The notes under the pieces: model-generated | The model's database searches: none | The model's input: only the letters and a program-made list of their open reading frames with translations | What the model was told of the DNA's origin: nothing | Part shown: positions 2,229 through 52,626 of the stretch, one piece after another | How positions within the stretch are numbered: position 1 is the stretch's first letter | Layout of the letters: every line of letters starts with the position of its first letter | Translations under genes and position numbers: made by a program | Source: a virus | Lineage: Duplodnaviria > Caudoviricetes | Virus record (IMG/VR): IMGVR_UViG_3300037400_002156 | Location: 32,001 to 96,000 of that record | Strand: one strand, 5' to 3' | DNA: 64,000 bases

Positions 2229-3814
2229 GTAATTTACATAGAAATATATTCTAAATAAATTACTTCGTAAATAAATTTACTGGCGTACTACACACCTCTA
2301 TCCCATATTCTATAAAGACGTTTGGGATTTCTTTTCTAAGAATATTTAGCGCACCATTTAGATCAGCATTTATTAATCTGCCATCGTAAGATCTAAATAG
2401 TCCTCGTTTAATTCGTTTTCCTTTATATGTTTCATGTTTGCGAATTTCTTCATCGTCTAAAAATGAGCATTTACTAGTGTATGATTCTTCACGAACTACA
2501 ACTTCAATGCCTTCAAGTTTAGATTTATAAGTAACCATGTGAATAAACATATTGAAAGGAATTTGAACAAATTTCTGATTGTTTGATTTACCTAAATCAA
2601 TGTCTTGTTTCCAATTCTTATTGTGTCCTATTACGATTTTAGACACGTCATTAGAAACTAAATGATTCACCAATTTTCGGCTTGCTTTGTGGATGTAGTC
2701 TTTTACTTTGTTATTTCTTTTCTGCGTTAGCTTTCTAATTTTGTCAGCATTTACATTTCTGTTCTTGCAAAGACCCTGCTTTGATTTTAGATTAGCTAAT
2801 TCTTTATTATAGAATTGGTTGATTGACTTCAAAGGCCTGCCACTTACTAATATCGGAGCAATTTTATTTCCTCCGACTGCTGCCAAGTTATTAAGACCAA
2901 TGTCGATTCCTACATAATTACCGTTGTCATAATGCTGCTTCTCATCAACGTTATATATAACTTCAATAATAAATAATGCGTTCTTAGGTATGACTCTTAT
3001 CTGTCTAACATCTGTATGAATCAACTTTATTCTGCTACTACAACCACTAAGTTTCAGATAGCCAAGTTTCAATTCTTTTCCTGATATAGCCTGATTTGTA
3101 AACGTTAGCATATATCTCGAATTCTTTTCTAGGTATCTAGGTATTGAAACTTTGTGATTTACTTTCTTTGACTTTAAAGAAGCAAAGAATGATCTGAAAT
3201 TCTGGTCTACCTGTTTAACAACCCACTGCGCAACTTTTGCTGGTAAAGAAGTATAGTCGATTTGTTTTTCTTTTGTGAGTTGACCGACATTAGCGTAATA
3301 ATTCAGATATTCTTTTGTATTGAAGTAATGCTGTCGTATTCTATAAAGTGCTTGATTATACAGATTCTTAGACAGAAAGCACATCTGATCTAATTCGCTA
3401 TATAGCGAATTAGACTTCTTTATGATATGTCTCTCTGTTAATAACATGTTAAGATTCCTTTTCGATATCTTTAATAGCCTATTTTACTTTTAACTTTAAT
3501 CTCTTACTTTTACGAAGACCGTAAATTCTTGCAGAGAAGCAATGTATTATTAAGATTAAGTCCTGTGTAATGTCTTCATCTTCTTCTTTAGCCTCGTTAA
3601 TTACTTCGATTCTATTACCTGTTAATAATTGAATGTAATTAAAGCCAAAACGTGTTAGACGATCTTTGTGTTCTACTATGATTTTATCGTACTTGTCATC
3701 TTTTAGAATTTTTGAAAGTTGTTTACGATTGTCATTTAAACCAGAACCAAATTCTTTCACAACTTGTTTTATCTTGTACCCTTTAGCGATGGCATATGCC
3801 TCTAATCGCTTTGC
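2229..3814 (-). mobile_element. IS607-family element with left end and tnpA 5' part deleted
   Basis: Serine-recombinase tnpA fragment plus tnpB. An imperfect hairpin at 2229-2263 (GTAATTTA...TAAATTAC) marks the likely right end, after which host-gene sequence resumes. Boundaries are approximate. Confidence 0.8.
2260..3447 (-). CDS. tnpB: TnpB RNA-guided endonuclease
   Basis: RuvC motifs GIDIGLNNLA, REESYTSKCSFLD and NADLNGALNI are all present; N-terminal SKNLYNQALY is typical. Confidence 0.95.
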   Translation of the reverse strand: MLLTERHIIKKSNSLYSELDQMCFLSKNLYNQALYRIRQHYFNTKEYLNYYANVGQLTKEKQIDYTSLPAKVAQWVVKQVDQNFRSFFASLKSKKVNHKVSIPRYLEKNSRYMLTFTNQAISGKELKLGYLKLSGCSSRIKLIHTDVRQIRVIPKNALFIIEVIYNVDEKQHYDNGNYVGIDIGLNNLAAVGGNKIAPILVSGRPLKSINQFYNKELANLKSKQGLCKNRNVNADKIRKLTQKRNNKVKDYIHKASRKLVNHLVSNDVSKIVIGHNKNWKQDIDLGKSNNQKFVQIPFNMFIHMVTYKSKLEGIEVVVREESYTSKCSFLDDEEIRKHETYKGKRIKRGLFRSYDGRLINADLNGALNILRKEIPNVFIEYGIEVCSTPVNLFTK

Positions 3815-4015
3815 AGTAGATGATCGGCAACCACATGATTTTGTGTGACCACGAATAACACGTTTGTATGGAATATCTTTTACATTACCACATGTACACT
3901 TACATCTGAATACAACAAAATTATTATCGTCTCTAAGTACATCTAGCACTTCTAACGAATCGAATATTTTGCCAATGTATTCACTTTTAAGAATGTCTAT
4001 ATTAATTCTGTTCAT
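3479..4015 (-). CDS. tnpA: Chimera: endonuclease N-terminal Cys domain fused to truncated IS607 TnpA resolvase
   Basis: Residues 1-67 (CKCTCGN...HTKSCGC) match the endonuclease paralogues. The rest (EFGSGLNDNRK, VEHKDRLTRFGF, FSARIYGLR) is IS607 TnpA. The HTH and the catalytic YARVS motif are absent. Confidence 0.85.
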   Translation of the reverse strand: MNRINIDILKSEYIGKIFDSLEVLDVLRDDNNFVVFRCKCTCGNVKDIPYKRVIRGHTKSCGCRSSTAKRLEAYAIAKGYKIKQVVKEFGSGLNDNRKQLSKILKDDKYDKIIVEHKDRLTRFGFNYIQLLTGNRIEVINEAKEEDEDITQDLILIIHCFSARIYGLRKSKRLKLKVK

Positions 4016-4103
4016 GATTATTAAGTAATAAGTGGGTAAATAAAATCCCTATTGCATATATAAATATACACAATAGGGATTTAAAATTTAATTGATGATA
4101 TTA

Positions 4104-6518
4104 TTAGGTGTTAGCCATAGCCTCTTCAATAGTAGTTGAAGATGAGTAAATTACGTAAGATAAATCAAATATTTCCGCCGACTGGTAGAAAATCACACGA
4201 ATAATTCCATTTATCTTGCGGTTCGCAATCTCCTCACGTGATGTTGTATCTTCACCCATTTGAACCATATACTCGCTAAGAGCATTTGACGAAACTAATG
4301 GATCAAGAATATACTGAGAAACATATGTCTTCCACTTATCCCATAGAACAAGACTATTAATAGAGAACTTAAGTGTCTCTGTGTATTCATCAATTTCGCT
4401 ACGAATCCAAACAAGCAAGCGAGCAATATGAGCTGCATTAAGATCTGTATATCCAGCGTTTAGAGTTTCATTTCCGAAAATCTGAACACCTCTTGTGCCA
4501 GTGTCCCAAATAGGATTAATTCTATACTGTACTAACTGATCTCTTTCAAGCTTTGTTTTTGGATTCTGTAAAACTTCTACTGTATCTGGAAGCACGCCAC
4601 CTTGATCTCCAGCTACTGGGAACTGAACGCCTCGATTTCGCCATGAAGTTAGAATATTATTCATTACAAGATTTGTAGGAGCGACTTTAACTTTTACATT
4701 ACGCGCTGAGCCATTTACAATCTTTGTGCATGTCATCTCTAACCATGACCAGTACATCTCTAAATAGAAACTCTGTGTTGCGTAATCTTCAGTATCTGTT
4801 TGACCATATTCCCAAAGATCTACAAAGTCACCTTGTGAAGCAACCCAATTACATGCATCTGTCATCTCCATTGGAGTTAAATCGCCATATTCTTTATAGT
4901 ATGGAGTTGAAAGAATCACCGTAGTGTCTTTGCGCTCACTCGCTATTTCTTTCATATAATAATGAAGTGTACGACGATCTTCGTAGTTTAAAGCATATAA
5001 ACCTGTAAGAGGATCGCTACTATTAGAACGTGTATTTACTGGACAAACAAGATCTGCCATTAAACGGCCATTATATTTCTTGTCTTTGTACTGGTTTAAT
5101 GCATTCACGTAATTAGTAACATTAACTACAAATGAAGGATTGCTTATAGTAACAGGACCGATAACTGGGAATGGGCTTGGTGATAATCCACCATCAGCAA
5201 CTGAATAATCATGTAAAATTTTAACTGCTAATGAATTTAAACCATCTTCTTTTACTGCACATGCATTTGCTGTAGAAGGATCCATTAGTTCAAATCTAAT
5301 TACTGTACCTAGAGCAGAGTTTAAATTATTTACAATTGACTGATTTGTTACTGTAGGATCACTAATCTTAATTCTTGAAGAGGCAAGAACACTATTGTTA
5401 ACATCTTTAACCGTTACATTAAGATAATATACATTTAATGAGTATGGCTTTGTTTTAGTTAGTTCACAATTAAATTGTAAGTCTTCAGCCATTGAAGAGT
5501 ATGCTACCATACAATGCTCAGCACGAGCTGCCGATTTAACTACTAAGATGTGACCACTAGTGAGAGCATCACGTAAAGTAACGGTAACAGACCAAGTACC
5601 GTCTAAATCCTGAGACCACACTACGTTTTCTGGCTCAACTGGTGTTTCTACTGTTGGGCTATCTGAATCATTTACATCTGCAAATGATGTAATTACATAA
5701 CGAGATGAAAGTTTTGTAGCGGTATATTTCTTTGTATCTGTAGAATCTACAGCAAGAGGAATATTCTCTACACCCCATGACTCATCGATAGCGCCTTCAA
5801 CTGAAATATTAGTAGGTTCTGGAATTACACCACTGTCAGGTAAATTTAGTGTAATAACTAAGTCAAATGTACTAATACCATTTACGAAGTGTTCTTCGCA
5901 CTTATATGTAAAATAGTCTGTGTAATCAATATTGCCTACATACGCCGCTGGCATATCCGCTGAGTTAGTTATTACATCGTCTGGCTCACCTTCAACTTCA
6001 CTTTTAACTGTAAATGGTAAAGTATAGAATGAGCTAGCTTCTAAGTCTGGTGTTAAAGAGTCTGTATTAGTAGATCCTGTAACTCGCTTAATGACATATT
6101 TATTACGTAAACCAGTAATTTTCCACTCGCCACTCTCTGGTACTGGATGATGATCACTCAGGTCTTCTTCTGTATCTCTAAGCTGATCATTTACAAATGG
6201 AAATTCATATACACCTGCATCACCTGAATCAACTTTTGCAACCCAACAAGTTCCACCATTTGCAACTAACTGCATAATACTATAAAGATCAACATATTTC
6301 TCAGGGTCAATACGAGGATCACCAAAGTTAGCAATTAGAGTATCAACATCACGAACTAAAATTGGATCATATTGATTTGTTACTGAGTTTTTCTGCACTC
6401 TTGAAATCGGAGTAATGCATGCAAATAAGCCATTAAATGAGGCTATATTTGGCACTACTGATTCGTCTTTTACACGTGATTTTACATGCGCACTCTCACG
6501 ACTATCTATTTTTATCAT
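4104..6518 (-). CDS. Tail sheath protein (T4 gp18-like)
   Basis: N-terminal NFGDP; C-terminal FPVAG...ERDQLVQYRINPI...IFGNETL...LNAAHIARLL sheath motifs. Confidence 0.9.
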   Translation of the reverse strand: MIKIDSRESAHVKSRVKDESVVPNIASFNGLFACITPISRVQKNSVTNQYDPILVRDVDTLIANFGDPRIDPEKYVDLYSIMQLVANGGTCWVAKVDSGDAGVYEFPFVNDQLRDTEEDLSDHHPVPESGEWKITGLRNKYVIKRVTGSTNTDSLTPDLEASSFYTLPFTVKSEVEGEPDDVITNSADMPAAYVGNIDYTDYFTYKCEEHFVNGISTFDLVITLNLPDSGVIPEPTNISVEGAIDESWGVENIPLAVDSTDTKKYTATKLSSRYVITSFADVNDSDSPTVETPVEPENVVWSQDLDGTWSVTVTLRDALTSGHILVVKSAARAEHCMVAYSSMAEDLQFNCELTKTKPYSLNVYYLNVTVKDVNNSVLASSRIKISDPTVTNQSIVNNLNSALGTVIRFELMDPSTANACAVKEDGLNSLAVKILHDYSVADGGLSPSPFPVIGPVTISNPSFVVNVTNYVNALNQYKDKKYNGRLMADLVCPVNTRSNSSDPLTGLYALNYEDRRTLHYYMKEIASERKDTTVILSTPYYKEYGDLTPMEMTDACNWVASQGDFVDLWEYGQTDTEDYATQSFYLEMYWSWLEMTCTKIVNGSARNVKVKVAPTNLVMNNILTSWRNRGVQFPVAGDQGGVLPDTVEVLQNPKTKLERDQLVQYRINPIWDTGTRGVQIFGNETLNAGYTDLNAAHIARLLVWIRSEIDEYTETLKFSINSLVLWDKWKTYVSQYILDPLVSSNALSEYMVQMGEDTTSREEIANRKINGIIRVIFYQSAEIFDLSYVIYSSSTTIEEAMANT

Positions 6519-6543: not shown

Positions 6544-6999
6544 CTAAGAATTCTTAAGAATTGTTAATAGATCAAAATATTTAAGTTTACATTTTTTATA
6601 ATCATTATAATATTGACTAAAATCAACACCTATCTCATGTGTTCTAAGATCTTCTGAAAAAATATTCTTTTCTTCATTTGAAAGATTTTGCCATATAGCA
6701 GAAAACACGTGAGATACTGTAAATGGAACTATGCCTAATGTGAGCAAATGATGTGGTTTATATAGTTTATTTTCAGCAAAACAAAATATATGCTCATTAT
6801 GCTCTTCTTTATAGAACTTTGCGGCTGGAGAGTTTGTATTATCATGAAATGGGCAATAACATGGATGAGTTATCATTGGCCAACTAGTTCCAATATATGA
6901 CAATAAGTATTCAAATGTGCAAAAATAATCTATGACATTTAGCTCTAACTTTGTATTACTAAGTAACTCATTTGACATGTCCATATTACTACTCTTCAC
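6544..6999 (-). CDS. Stand-alone primase-type (CHC2-like) zinc-binding domain protein
   Basis: CYCPFHDNTNSPAAKFY...HIFCF resembles the DnaG zinc-binding domain; adjacent to the helicase. Confidence 0.7.
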   Translation of the reverse strand: MKSSNMDMSNELLSNTKLELNVIDYFCTFEYLLSYIGTSWPMITHPCYCPFHDNTNSPAAKFYKEEHNEHIFCFAENKLYKPHHLLTLGIVPFTVSHVFSAIWQNLSNEEKNIFSEDLRTHEIGVDFSQYYNDYKKCKLKYFDLLTILKNS

Positions 7000-9621: not shown

Positions 9622-11157
9622 CTATCTCTTTCTATTCCATAACAGATTATTCTTTAATGTTTTAATATCTGAATAATCTATGTCAACATAATTACAATCG
9701 CAATTCTCAAGCGTACCTATAGAATCATCGCCAAGTAGTATCTTAATTAAGCCAATACGCTTTTTAAACAATTCTACCTTGTACTCATCTATTGTGTTAC
9801 TAACAGTTATAAAGTAAATATTCTGCTTATCATATGTTGTGTCTGCGCGACAAATTCTCCCGCACAACTGCACCAGCTTCCCGCACGACCACGGAAGATG
9901 GAAACATATAATATTATTAGCTCTCTGAAGATTTCGTGACTGTGATGCAGCTTGACTACATAATATAATTTCTTTTAGTCCTAAATTAGATTCAATAGCA
10001 GCTCTAGTCTCTTCTTTTTCAGCGCCAGTTAGACGATATATGGTTTTAAAGCCAATATCATCTTTGTGATCTAATAAAATCTTCTCTGCCAAGTCAAGAG
10101 AATCTTTATATTCAAAATAAATTAAAGTAGATTCATTTCTATCAATTATCTCTTTAACAGTTGATATTAAAAGTTGCATCTTATTAGAAATATGGTCTTT
10201 ATTCTTTTCTATCAAAGAACTATCCGACGAGTCACATATTCTCTGAAGGTCATGTAATCTACTTCCAAAATCTTTCTCTTCAATAGGATTGGCTTCTTCT
10301 GATTTTTTCTTTGATTTAGATTTTGCTTTTACTTTCTCAGGATGGTATAATACATCAAATAAACCAGATGCAGCTAATTTATACGGTTTTTCACTACTCT
10401 CATCTAGATTGCATTCTTTAAATTCAAAGTTTACGTTATAATGTATACATCCTTTAATAATAAGCTTGTCAAGAAGTTCATTAAGCTCTTGCATATTCTT
10501 AAAGCCAACTATCTCAATAACTTTTCTCTGAATATGAGCCCCGCTTCTTGATTTCATATGTATTACATTTTCTTTCGTAATACAATACCTAGCACGAAAT
10601 CTAAACCAAGAAACAAATATTGAAGGATATACGAAGTGTAATACGTTAAATAAGCCCTCAATATCATTTAATAAAGGTGTTGCTGTCATCGCATATATTC
10701 TTTTACAGTAACAGCGTACTTCCCATGCAGCTCTACAGAACACTGATTCAGGATTCTGTAATGAGTGTGCTTCATCTATCACGAGATGACATGTATTTGT
10801 ATTAGCAAGAGATACAAGATCTTCTACATACTTATTAACAAGAGTATTCTCTATAAAAATGTAGCGATGCTTAACCATATCTGAATATGAATACTTTTTT
10901 GAAGTATCTGCTGTAATGAGATAGTATGGCAATCCCATTCGCGTCTTCATTTCTTTCTCAAAAGCAGCTCTTGCTGACTTTGGAATCATAAAGATGCATT
11001 TATCATTATTATCTTTTAATAAATGATACTTCACAAAATGTAAAACACAAAGCGATTTTCCACAGCCCGGACTTAGTGCGAGTATCGCCATCTTCATCTG
11101 CGACATTCTATCTACAGACATCTTCTGTAATTCATTTAATACATAATTATCTGACAT
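9622..11157 (-). CDS. SNF2/SF2 DEAH helicase
   Basis: SPGCGKS, VIDEAH, MTATP, QLCGRICR motifs. Confidence 0.92.
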   Translation of the reverse strand: MSDNYVLNELQKMSVDRMSQMKMAILALSPGCGKSLCVLHFVKYHLLKDNNDKCIFMIPKSARAAFEKEMKTRMGLPYYLITADTSKKYSYSDMVKHRYIFIENTLVNKYVEDLVSLANTNTCHLVIDEAHSLQNPESVFCRAAWEVRCYCKRIYAMTATPLLNDIEGLFNVLHFVYPSIFVSWFRFRARYCITKENVIHMKSRSGAHIQRKVIEIVGFKNMQELNELLDKLIIKGCIHYNVNFEFKECNLDESSEKPYKLAASGLFDVLYHPEKVKAKSKSKKKSEEANPIEEKDFGSRLHDLQRICDSSDSSLIEKNKDHISNKMQLLISTVKEIIDRNESTLIYFEYKDSLDLAEKILLDHKDDIGFKTIYRLTGAEKEETRAAIESNLGLKEIILCSQAASQSRNLQRANNIICFHLPWSCGKLVQLCGRICRADTTYDKQNIYFITVSNTIDEYKVELFKKRIGLIKILLGDDSIGTLENCDCNYVDIDYSDIKTLKNNLLWNRKR

Positions 11158-11242
11158 AAAATTTCCTATATTAAAAACTTTTCAAAGTTTAATATCAATT
11201 CAATATCTACATATTGTAACCCACTAATATAGGAGATATTAT

Positions 11243-11461
11243 ATGAGTAGCAAAACAACAGATACTGAAAATAGAACAAACGTCAATGTCTCAAAAGAGT
11301 TTAGAGACAAAATGCAAAAAGCGACTTCTTTGTATTACATTAAAACTGGAAAGAAAATTACAATTGGCAATGCTGTTGAAGCGATTATAGATGGTTGTGA
11401 TGAAACACTTTTAAATATATACAAAGAATCCTGCAAACTTGCAAATTCAATGGAGAAGTAG
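11243..11461 (+). CDS. Small putative DNA-binding protein (ribbon-helix-helix-like)
   Basis: 72 aa, AGGAG RBS, RTNVNVSKEFRDKM strand-helix pattern; co-oriented with the endonuclease. Confidence 0.55.
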   Translation: MSSKTTDTENRTNVNVSKEFRDKMQKATSLYYIKTGKKITIGNAVEAIIDGCDETLLNIYKESCKLANSMEK

Positions 11462-11463
11462 AG

Positions 11464-12342
11464 ATGAATCAGAAAGAATGGAAAACATCTGGCAAATTTC
11501 CTGGTAAATATAAATGGTATAATCAAACAAGAAAATTTCAAAGATCTTTGTGTTACGAATCAGATCCTAACGCTAATATAATCCATCATCTTAGAGATAC
11601 AGAAGAGCAAAGAAATTATAATGATACTCATTACGAGTATTGGGGATTCAATGAAGATGGTACTTTTGAGTATGGTAAATATGTAGTCTTTGTAACTGAA
11701 GAGTGGCATAATAATTATCACGCACATTCAGAAGAAACTAAAAGTAAAATACGTAAAGCCCATGAACAATATTGGACTGAAGAAAATAGAATGCTATGGA
11801 GTGTTCAGATGTCTGGTGAAGGTAATGGGTTTTGTGGAAAACACCATAGTGATGAAACCAAAACACTTATAAGTAAAAATAGATCTGGAAAATGTGTGGG
11901 TGAAGATCACCCATTTTACGGAAAGCATCATACTGACGAATCTCGTAAGAAAATGAGTGATGCTCTATCTGGAAACAAACATCCTAGATTTGGTAAGTAC
12001 GGTAAAAATAACCCTATATACGGAAGAAAGCAATCTGAAGAAGCTAAAAAGAAAATAAGTGAAGGTAATAAAGGTAAATGTGCTGGAGAAAAGCATCCAT
12101 TTTATGGAAAACCAGCTTGGAATAGAGGGAAGAATATGTCTGATGAGTCTAAAGAAAAGATGAGCACTATTGCAAAGCCTAAATTTGCAGAAATGTCAGT
12201 TTACTGCAAAGAATATTGTAAAAATGGAGGCACTATCAAGTGGCAACAATTTCAAAAGTATTTCAATGAATATAAAAGATTATCAGTAAATCACTCTACA
12301 GGTGATTTCATTAAATGGATAAATAACTACGAATTGACTTAG
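11464..12342 (+). CDS. Free-standing HNH-like homing endonuclease with NUMOD3 repeats
   Basis: N-terminal IIHH...WHNNYH; repeated HPFYGKHHTDESRKKMS / HSEETKSKI NUMOD3-type motifs. Confidence 0.85.
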   Translation: MNQKEWKTSGKFPGKYKWYNQTRKFQRSLCYESDPNANIIHHLRDTEEQRNYNDTHYEYWGFNEDGTFEYGKYVVFVTEEWHNNYHAHSEETKSKIRKAHEQYWTEENRMLWSVQMSGEGNGFCGKHHSDETKTLISKNRSGKCVGEDHPFYGKHHTDESRKKMSDALSGNKHPRFGKYGKNNPIYGRKQSEEAKKKISEGNKGKCAGEKHPFYGKPAWNRGKNMSDESKEKMSTIAKPKFAEMSVYCKEYCKNGGTIKWQQFQKYFNEYKRLSVNHSTGDFIKWINNYELT

Positions 12343-12423
12343 CGCGAGTATCGCGGCGTTCATTTTAGACATTCTATCGATCGACATTCGTTGGAGTTCA
12401 TTTAATACATAATTATCTGACAT
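12336..12423 (-). pseudogene. Orphaned original 5' end of the SNF2 helicase
   Basis: MSDNYVLNELQRMSIDRMSKMNAAILALS, then runs into the antisense endonuclease and stops. Confidence 0.85.
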
Positions 12424-12509
12424 AATAACCTACTTAACTACATAAAGAAAAACCCATAATGGAATATACACCATTATGGGCAAGTGTTTAATTATGTTAG
12501 ATATTTGAA

Positions 12510-13367
12510 CTATAATGTATTTAGATACTCAATCTTTGACTTAAGAAAATCACCCAGCTCAACTTCAGGATATTGGTAATCACAATGAAGCGGATCCGTT
12601 ATGACATTAAGTTTCATAATGTCAAAGTTTGTACTGAATAATTTGTAAGCATCAATTAACTTATCAACCCACTTCTTTTCACTATCATTAAAATTTAATG
12701 ATATATTTTTAAGCTGTTCAATTGAAGGGCATTCCCCATTATAGTCAAGTAAGCTAACTATCCTTGCAGCCAGTTTTCTTGGGAACCTTATCACCGGTGG
12801 CTTCAATGTATCACTTGCATCGCCAGCTATAGCTCTAAAAATTGGTAACTTTCTTGGTTCAATTTCAAAGAACTTATCTGCATATTCTGCTTTATAAGAT
12901 TCTTCTGTTGTAATCAAACCCTTAAAAGATTCAATTACAGTGTCTTTGTTAAGTGACTGTAACAAATCTTTATCACCTGACAAAATCTTTTTCCTACCCT
13001 CTAATGTACGCGATAGCGTAAATATAATTTCATCTGATTCATAGTCATTATTATAATATACTTTAATACGATCATTATTTAATAAATGAATAAATGACGA
13101 TAAGCCAGCATAAACATTATATCCGCCTTCTTGTTTACGACCAGATTTATAATCTTCTTTTAATAAACGACGTCCTTTAGGATTCGCCCCATCAAGACAC
13201 AAGTGCACACGTGAATCTTCTCTAGCTAATAGTGACCCAAGCTTTTTACAAAGATAATGTAATTCTGCAAATTCAGAGTATACATGTTGCATTGCAAAAA
13301 AGCCTCTATATAGTAACCAACTTACATCAACTAAATAGTGTATCATAATATAATCCTTATAGTTCAA
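12510..13367 (-). CDS. 5'-3' exonuclease / flap endonuclease (T4 RNase H-like)
   Basis: YLVDVSWLLYRGFFA, YKSGR, YESDEII, SGDKDLLQ, AIAGDASD. Confidence 0.92.
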   Translation of the reverse strand: MNYKDYIMIHYLVDVSWLLYRGFFAMQHVYSEFAELHYLCKKLGSLLAREDSRVHLCLDGANPKGRRLLKEDYKSGRKQEGGYNVYAGLSSFIHLLNNDRIKVYYNNDYESDEIIFTLSRTLEGRKKILSGDKDLLQSLNKDTVIESFKGLITTEESYKAEYADKFFEIEPRKLPIFRAIAGDASDTLKPPVIRFPRKLAARIVSLLDYNGECPSIEQLKNISLNFNDSEKKWVDKLIDAYKLFSTNFDIMKLNVITDPLHCDYQYPEVELGDFLKSKIEYLNTL

Positions 13368-21863: not shown

Positions 21864-22946
21864 ATGAAACTAAAAGACATTTCAGAATTAAGAGATTTAT
21901 ACGTCGGTAAGACTTTTAACAAACTAACTATTACAGATATCTTAAGATCAGGTAAGAATTGGGTATGCAGATGTAAGTGCGAGTGCGGAGTAGAATGTGA
22001 AAAGAATCTAACAAAAGTTATTAGCGGACATACTAAAACTTGTGGCGGACACGTACATAAACTTGAGCAAGCGTCAAGACTGTCTCAACTATATAAAGAG
22101 CATCCAGAAATAGGTAAACGTGCTGGAGAAAAAATATCTTTATGGTATAAAGACGAAGAGAATAAGCCCGTTATACAAGAACGCTCTGATAATCATAGAA
22201 AATGGTGGGATGAGCACGGTGAACAACGAGAGTTTCAGTCCGATCGTATGATTAAAAAGTTTCTCAAAAATAGACAGTCTGCTGACTATTCAAATCTTAT
22301 ACAGATTATACATCCTAAGTATGTAGACGATCTATTATCAGGAAAGATTAAAAGAGACAATATAGTTGAAACGAAATGCCCATTATGCAATAAATACGGT
22401 GAGCATAAGTTTCACGACTTATTCCGTATAGCAAGTAACTCACTTAAGTATAGTCATGCTCTATTGTGTAGTGACTGTCAAAATGAAAAGACATCACATT
22501 ACGAAATAGAAATAGCAAATTATATAAATTCTTTTTGTAATAACGAGTGTATTAAGAATGACAGGTCAGTACTAAACGGAAAAGAGCTTGATTTATATTA
22601 TCCAGAAAAGAAAATTGCAATTGAATTTAATGGTGATTATTGGCATTCAGACGCGCATAAGTCTGATGATTATCACTATAACAAGTTCATAGAATGTTAT
22701 AATAGAGGAATTACACTTATAAGCATTTTTGAAAGTGAGTGGAATTCTAACAAAGATGCTATTAAAAGCTACATTAAAGACTTATTCAATGGCATAGAAA
22801 ATAAGCTATCATATAAGACAGACTCAGCTATTAATTTAAACTATCCGCCAATTAAGTTTGACATATCTCGATACTACGTTGAGAAAGCTTTCTACAGTAT
22901 AGGACATAGAAAAGTATATACTTGTGGATACGCTGTTGAGAACTAA
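21864..22946 (+). CDS. Putative homing endonuclease (Cys domain, Zn ribbon, Vsr/DUF559-like nuclease)
   Basis: CRCKCECG, CPLC/CSDC, ELDLYYPEKKIAIEFNGDYWHS, ISIFESEW. Confidence 0.85.
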   Translation: MKLKDISELRDLYVGKTFNKLTITDILRSGKNWVCRCKCECGVECEKNLTKVISGHTKTCGGHVHKLEQASRLSQLYKEHPEIGKRAGEKISLWYKDEENKPVIQERSDNHRKWWDEHGEQREFQSDRMIKKFLKNRQSADYSNLIQIIHPKYVDDLLSGKIKRDNIVETKCPLCNKYGEHKFHDLFRIASNSLKYSHALLCSDCQNEKTSHYEIEIANYINSFCNNECIKNDRSVLNGKELDLYYPEKKIAIEFNGDYWHSDAHKSDDYHYNKFIECYNRGITLISIFESEWNSNKDAIKSYIKDLFNGIENKLSYKTDSAINLNYPPIKFDISRYYVEKAFYSIGHRKVYTCGYAVEN

Positions 22947-29701: not shown

Positions 29702-32700
29702 TTAGTTATAACGTAAACAAGGAACATATACATTTGCTGTTGCACCAGCTGCTATTTTAAATCTTAACATAGTGTAATATGTGCCAGAAAAAGTCGAAGT
29801 ACCATAAGAAGCACTCGTATCATCTACTTTTTCTTCATAAGAATTTATATATAAAAGTGAAGTTGCATTTTCATTAGTTGTAAAGTAGGTTCCACTTGAT
29901 AATGATGTGCCTCTTGGAACAGTATAAGATGTAGACGAACTCTTATTTGTTATATTTAACTTAAAAAAGTAAAGACCGCCTGCTGATCTACTGAATAAAC
30001 AGTCTAAATCACCAGTATGATTTATCATTACCCAATATGTACCATCGTAGCGAAACATAACTGTTTCACCTGCATTCCATGAATGTATTGTATCGTTACC
30101 TACGTAGGTGCCTTCAACTCTTCTTATAAATTTATAACCTCCTCCAACAACTGTATCATCTGAATTTCTAACTCGAAGTGCTGGAGAATTAATAGTATTA
30201 CTATTAGTAAATTTAATTAAGATGATCATTCCAGTTGTAAAAGCATCAACATATCTGTTACTATTAGTTGTTAGCTTAACTTCTTTAATTTGTGTAACTG
30301 CTTCAGAAGAGCATTCACCATACGGTATACCAAAATTTTGTGCATATACGTTGTTAGCAAATACACTAGTAGTTGGATTTGCTCCACGTCCTATATAGTC
30401 ACACACTATATCTTTGCACATCAAATTTCCATTATGATCCTTAGATGCATCTACAGTTTCTCTAACTAGCTTTAATGCAAGAAAATCTGTTACTCCATTA
30501 CTAACAACAGAAAGAGCTATCTTTGGATCTAGTGCATAATCAATATTAACAGAGTCTTCACTAATATTGTGTAAGGTTCCTAAAGCTAGAGTAGGTGTAG
30601 AGATAAACATAGGATGCAGATTAGTGCCTTTATAATCTGTATACTTATCATTACCAGCTACTCTTGATCTTATCTTAATAACACCAACTTCATTAAATGT
30701 TGATTTACAGCAATTTTCAATATATTGATTAAAAACAACACTATTATAATCTTCTTCACCCTCATAATCACTTAAAGATTGAACTGCATTTTCTATGTAT
30801 ATATTAAGATTTTTACCTGTTACATCCCAATGTGACTGCCCTGAGCCTGTACTATCATAAGTGTATGAACTACTGCTCTGCCATATCTTAAAACTATCTT
30901 GATTACCTTCATGATCGTTGTCCCAATTACCAAAGCAAATAACAGGAGTCCAGCATTCACTATCACCAACAACCAAGCCAGTTCCGCCACTATCTCCAGC
31001 AACATATATAAAGCCATCGCTAGCAATCTGTAGAGCATTAGAACTAGAATAATCATTAAGATAAGCTATACTAGCATTACCAAAATTAAGATAATAACCT
31101 GGGGATATAGTTTTACTTGCTGTTATTGTCTGTGTTGTATCTGTAGTAACATATATATCTGCAACAGTGTCTATAATTTCAGCGCTTGTCTGTCTTATTT
31201 TCCCGTTCTTAAAAAAGAATATAGGATGGTCAGTTTCTAGGGATATAATACTATTAGAAGTACCTGCAACCATACCAAGATACACATAAAATTTATTATC
31301 TTCTGTAGATGGTAAAGTTTGAGTCCACCATGTATCATCAAGATAAAATTTTCTATCGGTACTATTAAAAGTAACTACTAAATATATTGCCTGATTATTT
31401 GTTAAAGAATTACTTAAACAATTGAAACTATATTTTCCATTTAAACTAGGATAACTTGTATATAGGTAAGTTGATAAAGCTATCTCCCCAGAATTTTTTG
31501 TAAGTGAATAACTATAATATAAAATTTTATCCAGATAAAAACCATGTGGATTTTTAGTTTTAGTTGTATCTGTTGTACAAGAAGTGCAGATAGATTCATA
31601 TAAATTATCACCTACTCTAAAAACTAACTGGTATCCATAAATATTACCTGTGCCTGCTATAACACTTGACGCTTTATTATAGGCGTAATCAACTGATGGT
31701 ATACTTGGCTTGTTAGTTAAATCATTATAGCTACCTGTAAAAGCAACTGTTTTTAATTTATCTTCTAAAACCTGTGACAAATCTTCTAAAGGTATATCAA
31801 TATCTGACTTATTAGCATCAGCATTAAAATGAAAGTGTAAACATTTTACTCCTTCTATAGTAGCAACATTAAGATAAAAGGTCATTGTACTAGAGTTATA
31901 GTTAGATGAAGCTAAAATAGCATTATAAACATCTTGTGAAGAATCTCCTGTATAAATAAATGCGGGAAGACTTTGATCAACTAATTGTTTAGCGTCATTA
32001 AGTTCTATACCAAGACCATCTTTTACAGCTTTTATTGTTGAAATTCTAGAGTCATAATTTACTAAAACAACACCCTCTGTATCTCCATATAAAGGAGGCG
32101 TAAGTTGTCCAACAGTAACTACAGAGACACTATCAAGCATTCCATCTTTAGTAAATGGAGTTGCATCAATATCTGTATTTAACTTTGTATTATTGCTATT
32201 ATAAAATTCTATTTTACCAGTAGTAGAATTGTATTGTGCTGATGAAATCTGATTAGATAATTTTGCATCAACCTGAGGCTTAGAATAAACAGAATAAGAA
32301 TCATCTGCTGACGTAGATTCATCCTCAATATGAACAATACCGTCTGTATTTAAAGATGCTGATGCTGGACTTGCTTGAATAGATGTTATAGAAAATCCAT
32401 TTGTAAAGCAGGAAGCGTCAAAAGATAAAAATAAATTTATTTCCGAAGACGAATTTTTATTGACAATATTATTTACGTTTGAATATGCCGCTACTATCTT
32501 CTTGACGTTATTCACTAACTTATAAAGTAGTATAGTTTTAGCTTGATACGAGTTAGAAGAAAGATCTCTAATTCGTAGATTAAGATAAGTACCCGTTGAA
32601 TTTCCAGTTGAATCATCTTCAAATAATACTGGTAATGAAGAAAGATTTTCTAGTGAAGATATTTTTGGTATGTAAGGAGAAGTTAAAGCTATACCATCTA

Positions 32701-40600: not shown

Positions 40601-41908
40601 TTATGAGTTTAAAATTTTTGAATAACCACATGTGTTTACTGTTATATTATTATATAGATAATTTAGCTCAACGTAACTTTCATTTTCATCTATGCTAATG
40701 TTAAGAGCTGGATAATTATTATTCATATATCCTTCTTTTAAAAAAGATAGATTATTATTTTTATTATTAAAAAGATCTCTAATGTAATCTTTAATTAAAG
40801 AATTAATTGAATTCCATTGAGATTCGAATATTGAAATAAGAGTTATCCCAATATCTCTGCACTTCTTAAATTTGTTATAATGATAATCTTTATCTTTAAA
40901 TATATTTGAATGCCAATAGTCTCCGTTAAATTCTACTGCTATGGATATATCAGGGTAGTATAAGTCAAGCTCATAAGGTGAAATTATTTCGCGAGAGTTT
41001 CTTATACATTCTCCGTTATAGAAAGTAGAAATATAATTAGCTATTTCATCTTCATATTTAGAAGTTACAAGTGATCTTAAGCATTTAAAGCATAGCGGTA
41101 TAGATTTAATCTTATTAATAGAATAGTCAATAATATTACCTATTCTGTGAAATTCATAGTTACCGCATGCTGGACATCGTGTTCTAACTTTTTCTACAGA
41201 TAAAGTATTACCAGAAACTACATTGTCTAAATCATCTTCGTGAATAAAACTAAGATCAATAGATGATACATCATTAGATCTCTTAATTATGTTAGATTTA
41301 ATAAGTGATTCACTTTGTAACTTTGATTGCTGTAATTTCTTATCATAATTATTCTTAATGTAATCAGATAGTTTCTTTCCAGCAATTTTTCCAATGTAAG
41401 GATGTTCAATGTAAAAATTATGATGCTGTACACCCTGATTAATAAGAATTTCAGGATTATCTTCTAACGTTTTCTTACGTTTTTCTGTCTTAGACTTTAC
41501 TTTATCAGGATTATTTTTACACCATTCAGAGTATCTATTTCCTTTTTCTAGAAGTTCATCTTTATGATTCTTGCACCATTCAGAATATTTCTTACCTCTT
41601 TCTTTCAACTTATCCGGATTCTGTGATATCCAGTTTCTTACTTTTTCAGATATCTTCTTACTGATGTCTGGATTGTTTTTACATAATTCTCTAAATCTGT
41701 ATGCTTTCTCTTTAGATGAGTTATAACATCCACACGATGTTGTCTTTCCACCATATACTCTTTTTAAATCTTTAACAGTAATGTTACCACATTTACATTG
41801 ACACTTACATACGCGATTTCCATGTTCATCTCTAAAAACGTCTAGTATTGTAAGCCATCCATAAGTGTGCCCAATCATCTCTGTTTTATAATCATCTAAA
41901 GTTTTCAT
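40601..41908 (-). CDS. Putative homing endonuclease (same family as 21864..22946)
   Basis: CKCQCKCG, WCKNNPDK repeats, CPAC/CFKC, ELDLYYP..AVEFNGDYWHS, TCGYS. Confidence 0.85.
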   Translation of the reverse strand: MKTLDDYKTEMIGHTYGWLTILDVFRDEHGNRVCKCQCKCGNITVKDLKRVYGGKTTSCGCYNSSKEKAYRFRELCKNNPDISKKISEKVRNWISQNPDKLKERGKKYSEWCKNHKDELLEKGNRYSEWCKNNPDKVKSKTEKRKKTLEDNPEILINQGVQHHNFYIEHPYIGKIAGKKLSDYIKNNYDKKLQQSKLQSESLIKSNIIKRSNDVSSIDLSFIHEDDLDNVVSGNTLSVEKVRTRCPACGNYEFHRIGNIIDYSINKIKSIPLCFKCLRSLVTSKYEDEIANYISTFYNGECIRNSREIISPYELDLYYPDISIAVEFNGDYWHSNIFKDKDYHYNKFKKCRDIGITLISIFESQWNSINSLIKDYIRDLFNNKNNNLSFLKEGYMNNNYPALNISIDENESYVELNYLYNNITVNTCGYSKILNS

Positions 41909-45102: not shown

Positions 45103-46203
45103 CTATAATGAATATCCACATGTGTAAACTACATTATCTCTAAATGTATAATAAAGATCATTATAATTTACACATTTAATATTCTTAAATGGCAATGGAT
45201 AGTTGTTATTCATTCCTAACTTATATATTGATAGACTATTTTCTTTATCATTAAAGAGATCTGTAATATAAAATTTTATGGCATCTTTATTGCGTAGCCA
45301 CTCAGATTCGAATATACTTACAAGTGTGATATTATTCTTATGACATTCAACAAATTTATTATAATGATACATCTCATCTTTAAATAAGCTAGAATGCCAA
45401 TAATCACCGTTAAATTCAATAGCAATCTTCTTTTCAGGATAATAAAGATCTAATTCAAACGGTGATATTATATTCCTTGAGTTTTTGATAAGAGTTCCAT
45501 TATAAAAAGTAGAAATGTAATCTATTATTTCAGACTCATATGATGAAGTTGAAAAGCATTTATCACATAAACGAAAACACTTTAACATCTTTTCAGATAT
45601 GTTAAATATATCTCTAACGTTATGCTCTGAAAAGTTTCCACATTGAGGACATCTTGTTTTTATCTTATCTGAAGATACTAGACTACCAGATAATAATTTA
45701 ACAAGGTCGTCTTCTTCTATCATATCACGAATATTATTATTCTCTACTATCTCACGTAAAGAGTTGACTCTATTAATCTTAGACAGCTCTTTATTTTTGT
45801 TAACATTTAATTCAATCATTCTCTGACGATTATTGTTTCTAATGTCTTCATGAGAATAAAACCATTCATGATGTCTCAGTGCTTGTTCTGCAATCTTATC
45901 AGGGTTGTTTTTGCACCATTGCTTATATTTATGAGATCTCTGTATAAGAATGTCTGGGTTATCTTTATATATCTGCTTACATTGATTAGAATATTCTTCT
46001 GATTTATTAAAACATCCACAAGATTTTATTTCACCTTTACGAATAACCTTAAGTAAATATTCTTTTACTGATCCACATCTGCATTGGCATTTACAAACAG
46101 TTCTATTATTTGAATTTGTATACACATCTAACACAGTTAACCAATTTATAGATTTACCAACTAATTCTGTTTTAAGATCATCAATGTTATATTTAATAGG
46201 CAT
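45103..46203 (-). CDS. Putative homing endonuclease (same family)
   Basis: CKCQCRCG, CPQC/CDKC, ELDLYYPEKKIAIEFNGDYWHS, TCGYS. Confidence 0.85.
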   Translation of the reverse strand: MPIKYNIDDLKTELVGKSINWLTVLDVYTNSNNRTVCKCQCRCGSVKEYLLKVIRKGEIKSCGCFNKSEEYSNQCKQIYKDNPDILIQRSHKYKQWCKNNPDKIAEQALRHHEWFYSHEDIRNNNRQRMIELNVNKNKELSKINRVNSLREIVENNNIRDMIEEDDLVKLLSGSLVSSDKIKTRCPQCGNFSEHNVRDIFNISEKMLKCFRLCDKCFSTSSYESEIIDYISTFYNGTLIKNSRNIISPFELDLYYPEKKIAIEFNGDYWHSSLFKDEMYHYNKFVECHKNNITLVSIFESEWLRNKDAIKFYITDLFNDKENSLSIYKLGMNNNYPLPFKNIKCVNYNDLYYTFRDNVVYTCGYSL

Positions 46204-52174: not shown

Positions 52175-52440
52175 ACTTAAGCACTTTTTATAATAGAAGT
52201 TCTTAATTGCTTACACAACCGGCTGCGCTGGGTTGTTCTGCAAAAGTTTATTGTTTATTGAAGTTCATAATAGAAGTTTAATGATGAAGATTGTAATCGG
52301 AATTTTTTAATAAAAAGTTTTTATTGAAGATCTCATAGAGATTTTTATAATAGAGAAGTTCTTATTTGAAGATTTATTAGATTGAAGATCATAAAATAGG
52401 AATCATTTAGATTCATTGAATACAGATTCAGATTAAGATC

Positions 52441-52509
52441 TTATTTAAATAATAAATATTATTTTATATTATATAATAAATAAATATATATATATTTTAT
52501 TATTTTATT
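52441..52509. other. A/T-only tract (candidate DNA-unwinding element)
   Basis: 69 consecutive A/T bases next to the tandem repeats. Confidence 0.7.
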
Positions 52510-52605
52510 GATTAGAATTTTGATTAGAATTTTGATTAGAATTTTGATTAGAATTTTGATTAGAATTTTGATTAGAATTTTGATTAGAATTTTGATTAGA
52601 ATTTT
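52510..52605 (+). repeat. Tandem array of 8 exact GATTAGAATTTT units (iteron-like)
   Basis: Counted directly; followed by a partial GATTTT. Confidence 0.98.
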
Positions 52606-52626
52606 GATTTTGAGTTTCAGCTTCTT

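Follow-up and report, generated by a model that had tools for sequence, protein, structure and literature searches.

A putative homing-endonuclease cassette between two versions of the start of a phage SNF2 helicase gene

We analysed a stretch of 64,000 nucleotides from a virus of the Caudoviricetes (positions 32,001 to 96,000 of the IMG/VR record IMGVR_UViG_3300037400_002156), referred to here as the window. It is part of a 204-kb metagenome-assembled viral contig with an estimated completeness of 95%. A SNF2-family helicase is encoded on the minus strand of the window. Upstream of this gene lie a small open reading frame (ORF) and a homing-endonuclease gene, both in the opposite orientation, and beyond them a second, orphan copy of the first 29 helicase codons (Table 1). 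Related phage contigs to which the locus was compared are designated by L-numbers, and homologous proteins by P-numbers.

Table 1 Features of the helicase locus, in window coordinates
Feature	Position	Strand	Remarks
5'-3' exonuclease gene (RNase H/FEN-like)	12510..13367	-	Pfam 5_3_exonuc_N, E 1.2e-15; native left context
Terminator-like hairpin of the exonuclease gene	12442..12481	-	11-bp stem, TGTATAT in the loop, T-run
Orphan copy of helicase codons 1-29	12337..12423	-	Ends after A-L-S, just ahead of the P-loop codons
Homing-endonuclease gene, 292 aa	11464..12342	+	Five NUMOD3 repeats
Companion ORF, 72 aa	11243..11461	+	Ends 2 nt before the nuclease gene
Divergent intergenic region, 85 nt	11158..11242	.	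Helicase leader and ribosome-binding site; presumably cassette promoter
Second copy of helicase codons 1-29	11071..11157	-	Continuous with the intact gene
SNF2-family helicase gene, 511 aa	9622..11157	-	Likely host gene of the insertion; Pfam SNF2-rel_dom, Helicase_C, ResIII; PHROG 62

The two copies form a direct repeat of 90 nt (11070-11159 and 12336-12425), spaced 1266 nt apart and identical at 73 of 90 positions. With E values of about 1e-18 to 1e-20 in a self-BLAST, it is the sole flanking repeat of this kind in the window. Read on the minus strand, each copy opens with an ATG and codes for helicase residues 1-29. The first 33 nt are identical between the copies, and all 17 mismatches are confined to codons 10-27, where five of the differing codons are synonymous and five replace the residue.

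At its inner end, the orphan departs from the helicase frame straight after A-L-S and continues into junk sequence as far as 12283, forming a 46-aa ORF (12283..12423). The TAG stop codon of the nuclease gene (12340-12342) is the antisense of the Leu-28 codon of the orphan. Both cassette ORFs are antisense to the helicase, and the minus strand has about 1.2 kb opposite them. The downstream copy carries an AGGA-type ribosome-binding site 9 nt ahead of its ATG. On the far side of the orphan, the stem-loop of the terminator hairpin (12481..12452) is separated from the orphan ATG by the native distance of about 20 nt. The layout agrees with a preliminary description of the locus, which had reported the duplicated codons with their spacing, identity and restricted mismatches, the break of the upstream copy at A-L-S, the continuation of the downstream copy from its own ribosome-binding site into the intact gene, and the two antisense genes in between, with the nuclease stop codon inside the orphan.

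We think it quite likely that a free-standing cassette, made up of the 72-aa ORF and the NUMOD3 nuclease gene, is lodged in the SNF2 helicase gene between the codons for A-L-S and those for P-G, at the edge of the Walker A P-loop. The helicase gene survives because a leader, a ribosome-binding site and complete codons 1-29 follow the insert. A different explanation would be that the element is an intron or intein and the orphan is exon 1, spliced to the gene body. Endonuclease genes that occupy conserved motifs of phage genes are as a rule carried by introns or inteins, and a distant contig (L083) has two group I introns flanking a related nuclease gene. We nevertheless regard splicing as extremely improbable at the helicase locus. 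No Rfam family matched positions 10900-12600 of the window at E<=1, and an intein is precluded because the nuclease gene is antisense to the helicase. Furthermore, a spliced gene would have no use for a complete second start with its own ribosome-binding site, and the orphan leaves the helicase frame for junk where it should join the gene body. The core of the earlier proposal, a splicing-free insertion into a conserved coding motif with the second start keeping the gene intact, is thus supported.

The 292-aa protein can safely be classified as a NUMOD3 homing endonuclease. It matches NUMOD3 in Pfam (E 1e-26, five repeats) as well as PHROG 314/655, annotated as 'homing endonuclease', and has 1222 metagenome homologues, the closest of which, P0001, is 95% identical. 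Judged against its relatives it is full length, and the genome contains one copy. The protein comprises a conserved N-terminal domain (the first ~115 residues), the five NUMOD3 repeats and a C-terminal helical domain. H41, H42, N53, H82 and H86 are invariant across 100 nuclease sequences. A model of residues 1-119, predicted from a 100-sequence alignment with a predicted local distance difference test (pLDDT) score of 94, shows two strands (39-42 and 74-77) and a helix (79-86) that carry these invariant residues, and a beta-beta-alpha-metal, HNH-like domain is plausible. The model of the full-length protein was too poor for use (pLDDT 59). Neither a Foldseek search with the domain model nor a PDB sequence search with the nuclease returned a match of any meaning.

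The 72-aa companion ORF has no match in Pfam, PHROG or NCBIfam. L093 and L097 have homologues (90% and 45% aa identity, respectively) immediately ahead of their nuclease genes. Its nearest named atlas clusters are MetJ, ParB C-terminal and RHH_1, with scores of 0.89-0.91, a range that chance matches reach as well; the product is possibly a ribbon-helix-helix protein. The small gene of the preliminary description is present, and the DNA binding ascribed to it is plausible.

Relatives of the locus were sought in several sequence collections. A scan of viral contigs with the nuclease protein, a megablast of the region against GenBank phages and further scans of genome contigs gave no match, and tblastn against GenBank phages found only relatives less than 25% identical. 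Scans of viral and metagenome contigs based on the helicase yielded about 20 distinct loci, in all of which the exonuclease gene precedes the helicase. In the empty alleles (L092, which is the closest, L003/L094, L100/L101/L009, L104/L008 and L118/L119), the order is exonuclease gene, terminator hairpin, short leader and helicase. All stages of the homing-endonuclease cycle are present at this one site: it is empty in L092, L100, L003, L104 and L118, holds an intact nuclease gene in the window and L099 and a frameshifted one in L098, and retains only a 95-aa C-terminal remnant of the gene in L005 and L096. The window cassette is itself polymorphic: L093 has it, and L092, L003 and others lack it. 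Occupied and empty alleles differ in sequence around the site, and a search among these loci for a simple rule separating the two groups found none.

The near-isogenic pair L099 and L100 allowed a direct comparison of an occupied and an empty site. In L099, the nuclease gene is intact and lies on the same strand as the helicase, with a 26-codon orphan before it and a new helicase start overlapping its stop codon. L099 and the empty L100 are 99.94% identical over 1589 nt, a stretch that ends inside the L099 orphan. The empty allele thus matches the orphan, the leader and the terminator of L099, and the functional start of L099 is foreign. Relative to L100, L099 carries an insert of 737 nt, which consists of the nuclease gene and the beginning of the new gene start. 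The two differ by 48 mismatches between the new ATG and a point about 55 nt beyond the S/P boundary, after which near identity resumes.

The order seen in the window, with exonuclease gene, terminator, 29-codon orphan, antisense nuclease gene and intact helicase, recurs in L098. The L098 orphan stops at the same A-L-S codon, and the sequence on the nuclease side of the junction can be aligned to that of the window. The orphan itself is a different allele, sharing 28 of 29 residues with the starts of P0172 and P0230, both intact helicases. L098 lacks the small ORF, and its nuclease gene is broken into three frames.

The window cassette recurs in L093 with 93.9% identity over 839 nt. The match covers the spacer and the first 11 nt of the helicase, and the contig breaks off within the nuclease gene. 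The divergent intergenic region is 94% identical between the two. The body of the L093 helicase is 93.5% identical to that of the empty L092, and its first 47 codons are replaced by an unrelated type. As in L099, the replaced tract ends about 55 nt past the S/P boundary. Downstream of the helicase and on its strand, L093:2649-2780 again holds the start of the nuclease gene (92% identical to window 11464-11549). This phage may carry elements at both ends of the helicase; the contig stops there.

A second insertion point was found near the other end of the gene. L097 has a complete helicase gene, then a 64-aa homologue of the small ORF and then a 327-aa nuclease gene. The fragment behind the cassette starts in motif VI (G-R-L-I-Q-V) and shares 100% identity with the 3' end of L104, an empty allele, and upstream the two contigs have 2 mismatches in 1152 nt. 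Between them, the functional gene of L097 is about 40% diverged from L104 from nt 2053 to the stop codon (a tract of 636 nt), and about 390 nt of this tract lie on the gene-body side of motif VI. L097 is the mirror image of the window, with a new end, the small ORF, the nuclease gene and the displaced native end. A related nuclease gene is found in L014, in an unrelated 157-aa gene. On one side it has the first 20 codons in their native form, the form of the empty L109-L111, and on the other a divergent new start, which overlaps the stop codon of the nuclease gene. The two-gene cassette type beside a host-gene duplication, for which the preliminary description had suggested a search elsewhere, is present in L097 at motif VI, and a related nuclease gene is so placed in L014.

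An endonuclease ORF inside a coding gene, flanked by two versions of the gene end, is thus seen in the window, L098, L099, L014 and L097. This recurrence bears on the possibility that an assembler merged the sequences of two strains that occur together and differ in their helicase starts. The genome is indeed a viral contig assembled from a metagenome, and both versions of the start do exist in the population. We consider such an artefact very improbable, as 1.2 kb of unique coding sequence with precise junctions separates the copies, the nuclease ORF crosses the junction and terminates within the orphan, and the same architecture is found in L098, L099, L097 and L014, which are independent assemblies from other samples.

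L099 differs from L100 in a second sharp patch (L099:3500-3790; 77 mismatches in about 290 nt), which extends from motif VI to near the end of the gene. It has no nuclease gene and looks like the trace of a past visit of the motif-VI element, or like cleavage that was repaired without inheritance.

The helicase has 191 homologues at E<=1e-50. Both 29-codon versions of the window begin intact helicases in other phages; the orphan encodes 25 of the 29 residues with which the intact helicases P0127 and P0179 begin. The preliminary description had taken the downstream N-terminus for a recoded one. This does not hold: both versions start intact helicases elsewhere and half of the codon differences are replacements, so that the second copy is a natural, probably foreign allele. 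Within the window genome the orphan would be the resident copy, judging from the near-isogenic pairs, and the imported tract may extend to about codon 47 (about 11017).

Exchange of gene ends is widespread in the population. In a set of 530 helicase pairs at least 97% identical over residues 60-395, 52% of the pairs are less than 60% identical in the first 47 residues (with a minimum of 29%), and 48% are less than 70% identical in the C-terminal part. This divergence, together with the layout of L097, indicates that both helicase ends act as exchangeable modules delimited by motifs I and VI.

The remaining alternative is that the cassette is an ordinary intergenic one upstream of the helicase, with the downstream copy being the original and the orphan a one-off repair scar or local duplication without a role in mobility. 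Several observations are in line with it. The leader of the downstream copy is the native helicase leader of the cassette-free L003, the ~35 nt nearest the helicase ATG recurring upstream of the cassette-free helicase in L003/L094. In L093 the cassette abuts an unrelated helicase start, which would be expected if the cassette ends at the ATG. One-sided illegitimate break repair, which could leave such a scar, is documented for T4 intron homing (PMC2988022). Against this alternative, L098 repeats the junction codon and an alignable nuclease side beside a different, undecayed orphan allele. In the near-isogenic pairs it is the orphan that is native and the functional copy that is foreign, and the orphan of the window stands at the native distance from the terminator. 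Finally, the orphans are open over all 29 codons and match living alleles, which points to recent and repeated formation. Overall, we judge the intergenic explanation unlikely.

Insertion into the reading frame, which we prefer, also has to be set against a number of observations that weigh against it. All sequences compared are metagenome assemblies. No isogenic empty allele of the window genome was found among the related contigs, and the nearest one, L092, is not isogenic (81% aa identity in the helicase, 74% nt identity in the exonuclease gene). The start of L092 fits the downstream copy of the window (79/87) better than the orphan (67/87), as the intergenic explanation would have it. Among the cassette-free alleles, the empty partners in the pairs L100/L099, L109/L014 and, at the 3' end, L104/L097 match the orphan, as the preliminary description had predicted, and L092 is closer to the downstream copy of the window. 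Taken literally, the better fit of L092 is the outcome that the preliminary description had named as refuting; since starts swap freely among near-identical helicases, it is uninformative. The 11-residue start common to both copies of the window occurs in no other helicase examined, and this, with the identity of the first 33 nt, suggests later gene conversion between the copies or local duplication more than a simple pair of one resident and one imported copy; conversion, or a long resection that imported both copies from a donor, is possible. The window and L093 share the cassette and not the gene start; because L093 joins the same cassette to a different start, the spare start is exchangeable and no fixed cargo. 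Lastly, the Pfam HNH models did not match the N-terminal domain of the nuclease at E<=10, and in VIA-align of the domain model HNH nucleases made up four of seven rows, all weak (Z 2.0-2.9). Of the earlier designation as an HNH/NUMOD3 endonuclease, the NUMOD3 part was confirmed and the HNH part is plausible.

These comparisons suggest a possible route of spread for the cassette. During mixed infection, the nuclease would cut cassette-free helicase alleles at or near the P-loop codons, and the break would be repaired from the occupied genome. One arm of the repair would be the gene body from about 55 nt past the site, where a conserved block begins, and the other would be the orphan of the donor together with its upstream flank. 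The cassette and the donor start would be copied in, with the start of the recipient becoming the orphan. We infer the cleavage site and the usage of the arms, and the new copy would be immune to its own nuclease through its differences around the site. Transcripts begun at the native promoter would run antisense through the cassette and still include the new ribosome-binding site. Later, the two copies could recombine, which would delete the cassette cleanly and leave a chimeric start.

The first junction may have arisen by one-sided illegitimate repair from a phage with the cassette in the spacer upstream of the helicase. Such a spacer location is probably the ancestral state, because the leader of the functional copy in the window is the native leader of L003. 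The proposed repair route would also explain why the orphans are fresh copies of living alleles and yet the junction is common to the window and L098. More generally, we lean slightly towards the view that gene-end replacement is a third way, beside introns and inteins, into conserved motifs of essential phage genes, with the orphan serving as a working homology arm and the helicase ends being freely exchangeable across the phage group.

Comparable arrangements have been described in fungal mitochondria as mORF 'gene hybrids', namely in atp6 of Allomyces macrogynus and in atp6, atp9, cox2 and nad3 of Glomus (Beaudet et al. 2013, PMC3630166). As in those hybrids, an endonuclease ORF is located in a coding gene with a divergent foreign end fused to the gene body, and in the sister loci L099, L097 and L014 the displaced end behind the ORF is the native one, agreeing with close relatives that lack the element. 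L097 compared with L104 shows exactly the mORF pattern, at the 3' end, and L099 compared with L100, and probably also the window, shows its mirror image at the 5' end. In the mitochondrial genes it is the C-terminal end that is replaced, and the enzymes are of the LAGLIDADG or GIY-YIG type (PMC3630166). In contrast, the element described here has a NUMOD3 protein with a probable HNH-like domain and a small companion ORF, and resides in a 204-kb phage. It needs new translation signals because the start of the gene, and not its end, is replaced.

Other mitochondrial elements show partial similarities. Inserts annotated as introns carry a duplicate of the N-terminal part of the mitochondrial host gene; alleles with and without the insert were compared, and an exchange of foreign gene fragments through gain and loss of the element was proposed (2020, PMC7315562). 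Unlike those introns, the phage element has no ribozyme signature, its nuclease gene can be antisense, and a leader and a ribosome-binding site come with the spare start. In Endoconidiophora, partial C-terminal duplications adjoin endonuclease genes (PMC6279837).

Among phages, the element resembles the intronless homing of SegF, SegG and MobE in T4 (PMC2988022), where a free-standing nuclease gene lies beside an essential replication gene, its presence is polymorphic, flanking markers are converted along with it and differences at the target site presumably shield the occupied genome. T4-type elements are intergenic or split a gene into two working pieces, as do mobE in Aeh1 nrdA and mobA in gene 60 (PMC2988022), whereas the present insert most likely lies inside the reading frame of a gene that is kept whole through its duplicated end. 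That review of T4 mobile DNA does not mention gene-end duplication (the word stem 'duplicat' appears nowhere in PMC2988022). Illegitimate one-sided double-strand-break repair during T4 intron homing was reported by Parker, Belisle & Belfort 1999 (summarised in PMC2988022). With its one-sided homology and a microhomology junction on the opposite side, it offers a plausible origin for the first junction between orphan and nuclease gene. The T4 events were obtained in the laboratory with engineered homology, whereas the junction shared by the window and L098 is inherited and has spread in nature.

A survey of nuclease genes at recombination boundaries (PMC10448857) and a pipeline for fragmented phage genes (PMC8351571) report no duplicated gene end; these papers, like PMC2988022, describe intergenic elements or genes split in two. 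In the literature searched, outside which most subscription journals lie, we found no description of a duplicated gene end beside an endonuclease gene in a phage. Relative to the known elements, the new features are the phage host, the replacement of a 5' end with its own translation signals, the occurrence in either orientation, the combination of NUMOD3 with a companion ORF, and the occupation of motifs I and VI of one gene.

If correct, our interpretation means that a free-standing endonuclease gene can occupy the most conserved and most durable sites in an essential gene with neither splicing nor a split protein. The natural pairs of occupied and empty alleles make the mechanism directly testable. 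It would also explain the mosaicism of the phage group, in which about half of the near-identical helicases have swapped N- or C-terminal modules, and it is relevant to phage phylogenetics, to recombination analysis and to gene calling, where orphans are called as small ORFs. A nuclease domain that has no Pfam match and is aimed at defined motifs could furthermore be of interest as a new specificity scaffold.

The signals upstream of the two starts were examined as well. TGTATAT, which had been described as a promoter motif retained by the orphan, forms the loop of the terminator hairpin that follows the exonuclease gene. With 41 occurrences over the two strands of the window, the word is not informative on its own. 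Ahead of the helicase start in the empty L003, L100, L104 and L118/L119, equivalent hairpins nevertheless keep this loop on stems that covary. A -35/-10-like match makes use of the loop, which is possibly a signal, either as a combined terminator and promoter or as a protein-binding site. A second terminator-like hairpin with a TGTATAT loop lies on the minus strand at about 4050-4090 of the window. On the plus strand, a promoter-like site at 11214-11242, ahead of the companion ORF, is a consensus match only.

A set of 68 NUMOD3 loci was screened for flanking repeats. A coding duplication of the kind seen in the window was present only in L014. Two further candidates, L013 and L083, were rejected. 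In L013, the repeats belong to a multi-copy intergenic family of ~140-nt direct repeats with 68-78% identity (L013:644-765, 3389-3546, 4908-5057, 6120-6267 and 6776-6922). They are located in spacers before small genes around a related nuclease gene, and are probably promoter or leader regions. The repeats of L083, a distant viral contig, are its two group I introns (L083:3284-3626 and 4561-4889; Rfam RF00028, 68.5 and 62.3 bits), which are about 75% identical and flank a free-standing 264-aa NUMOD3 nuclease gene (3665..4459). They may have arisen by duplication of one intron, or they may be two introns separated by a short exon region that holds the nuclease gene.

Finally, the window contains other repeats. 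Diverged coding segments (61-66% nt identity), presumably from paralogous genes, are repeated at 40619-41239 and 45109-45714, and another such segment at 22491-22865 is inverted relative to 40691-41065 and 45229-45531, with the same range of identity and presumably the same paralogous origin. At 52419-52609, a cluster of short tandem and inverted repeats is composed of units of 43-67 nt with 88-93% identity.

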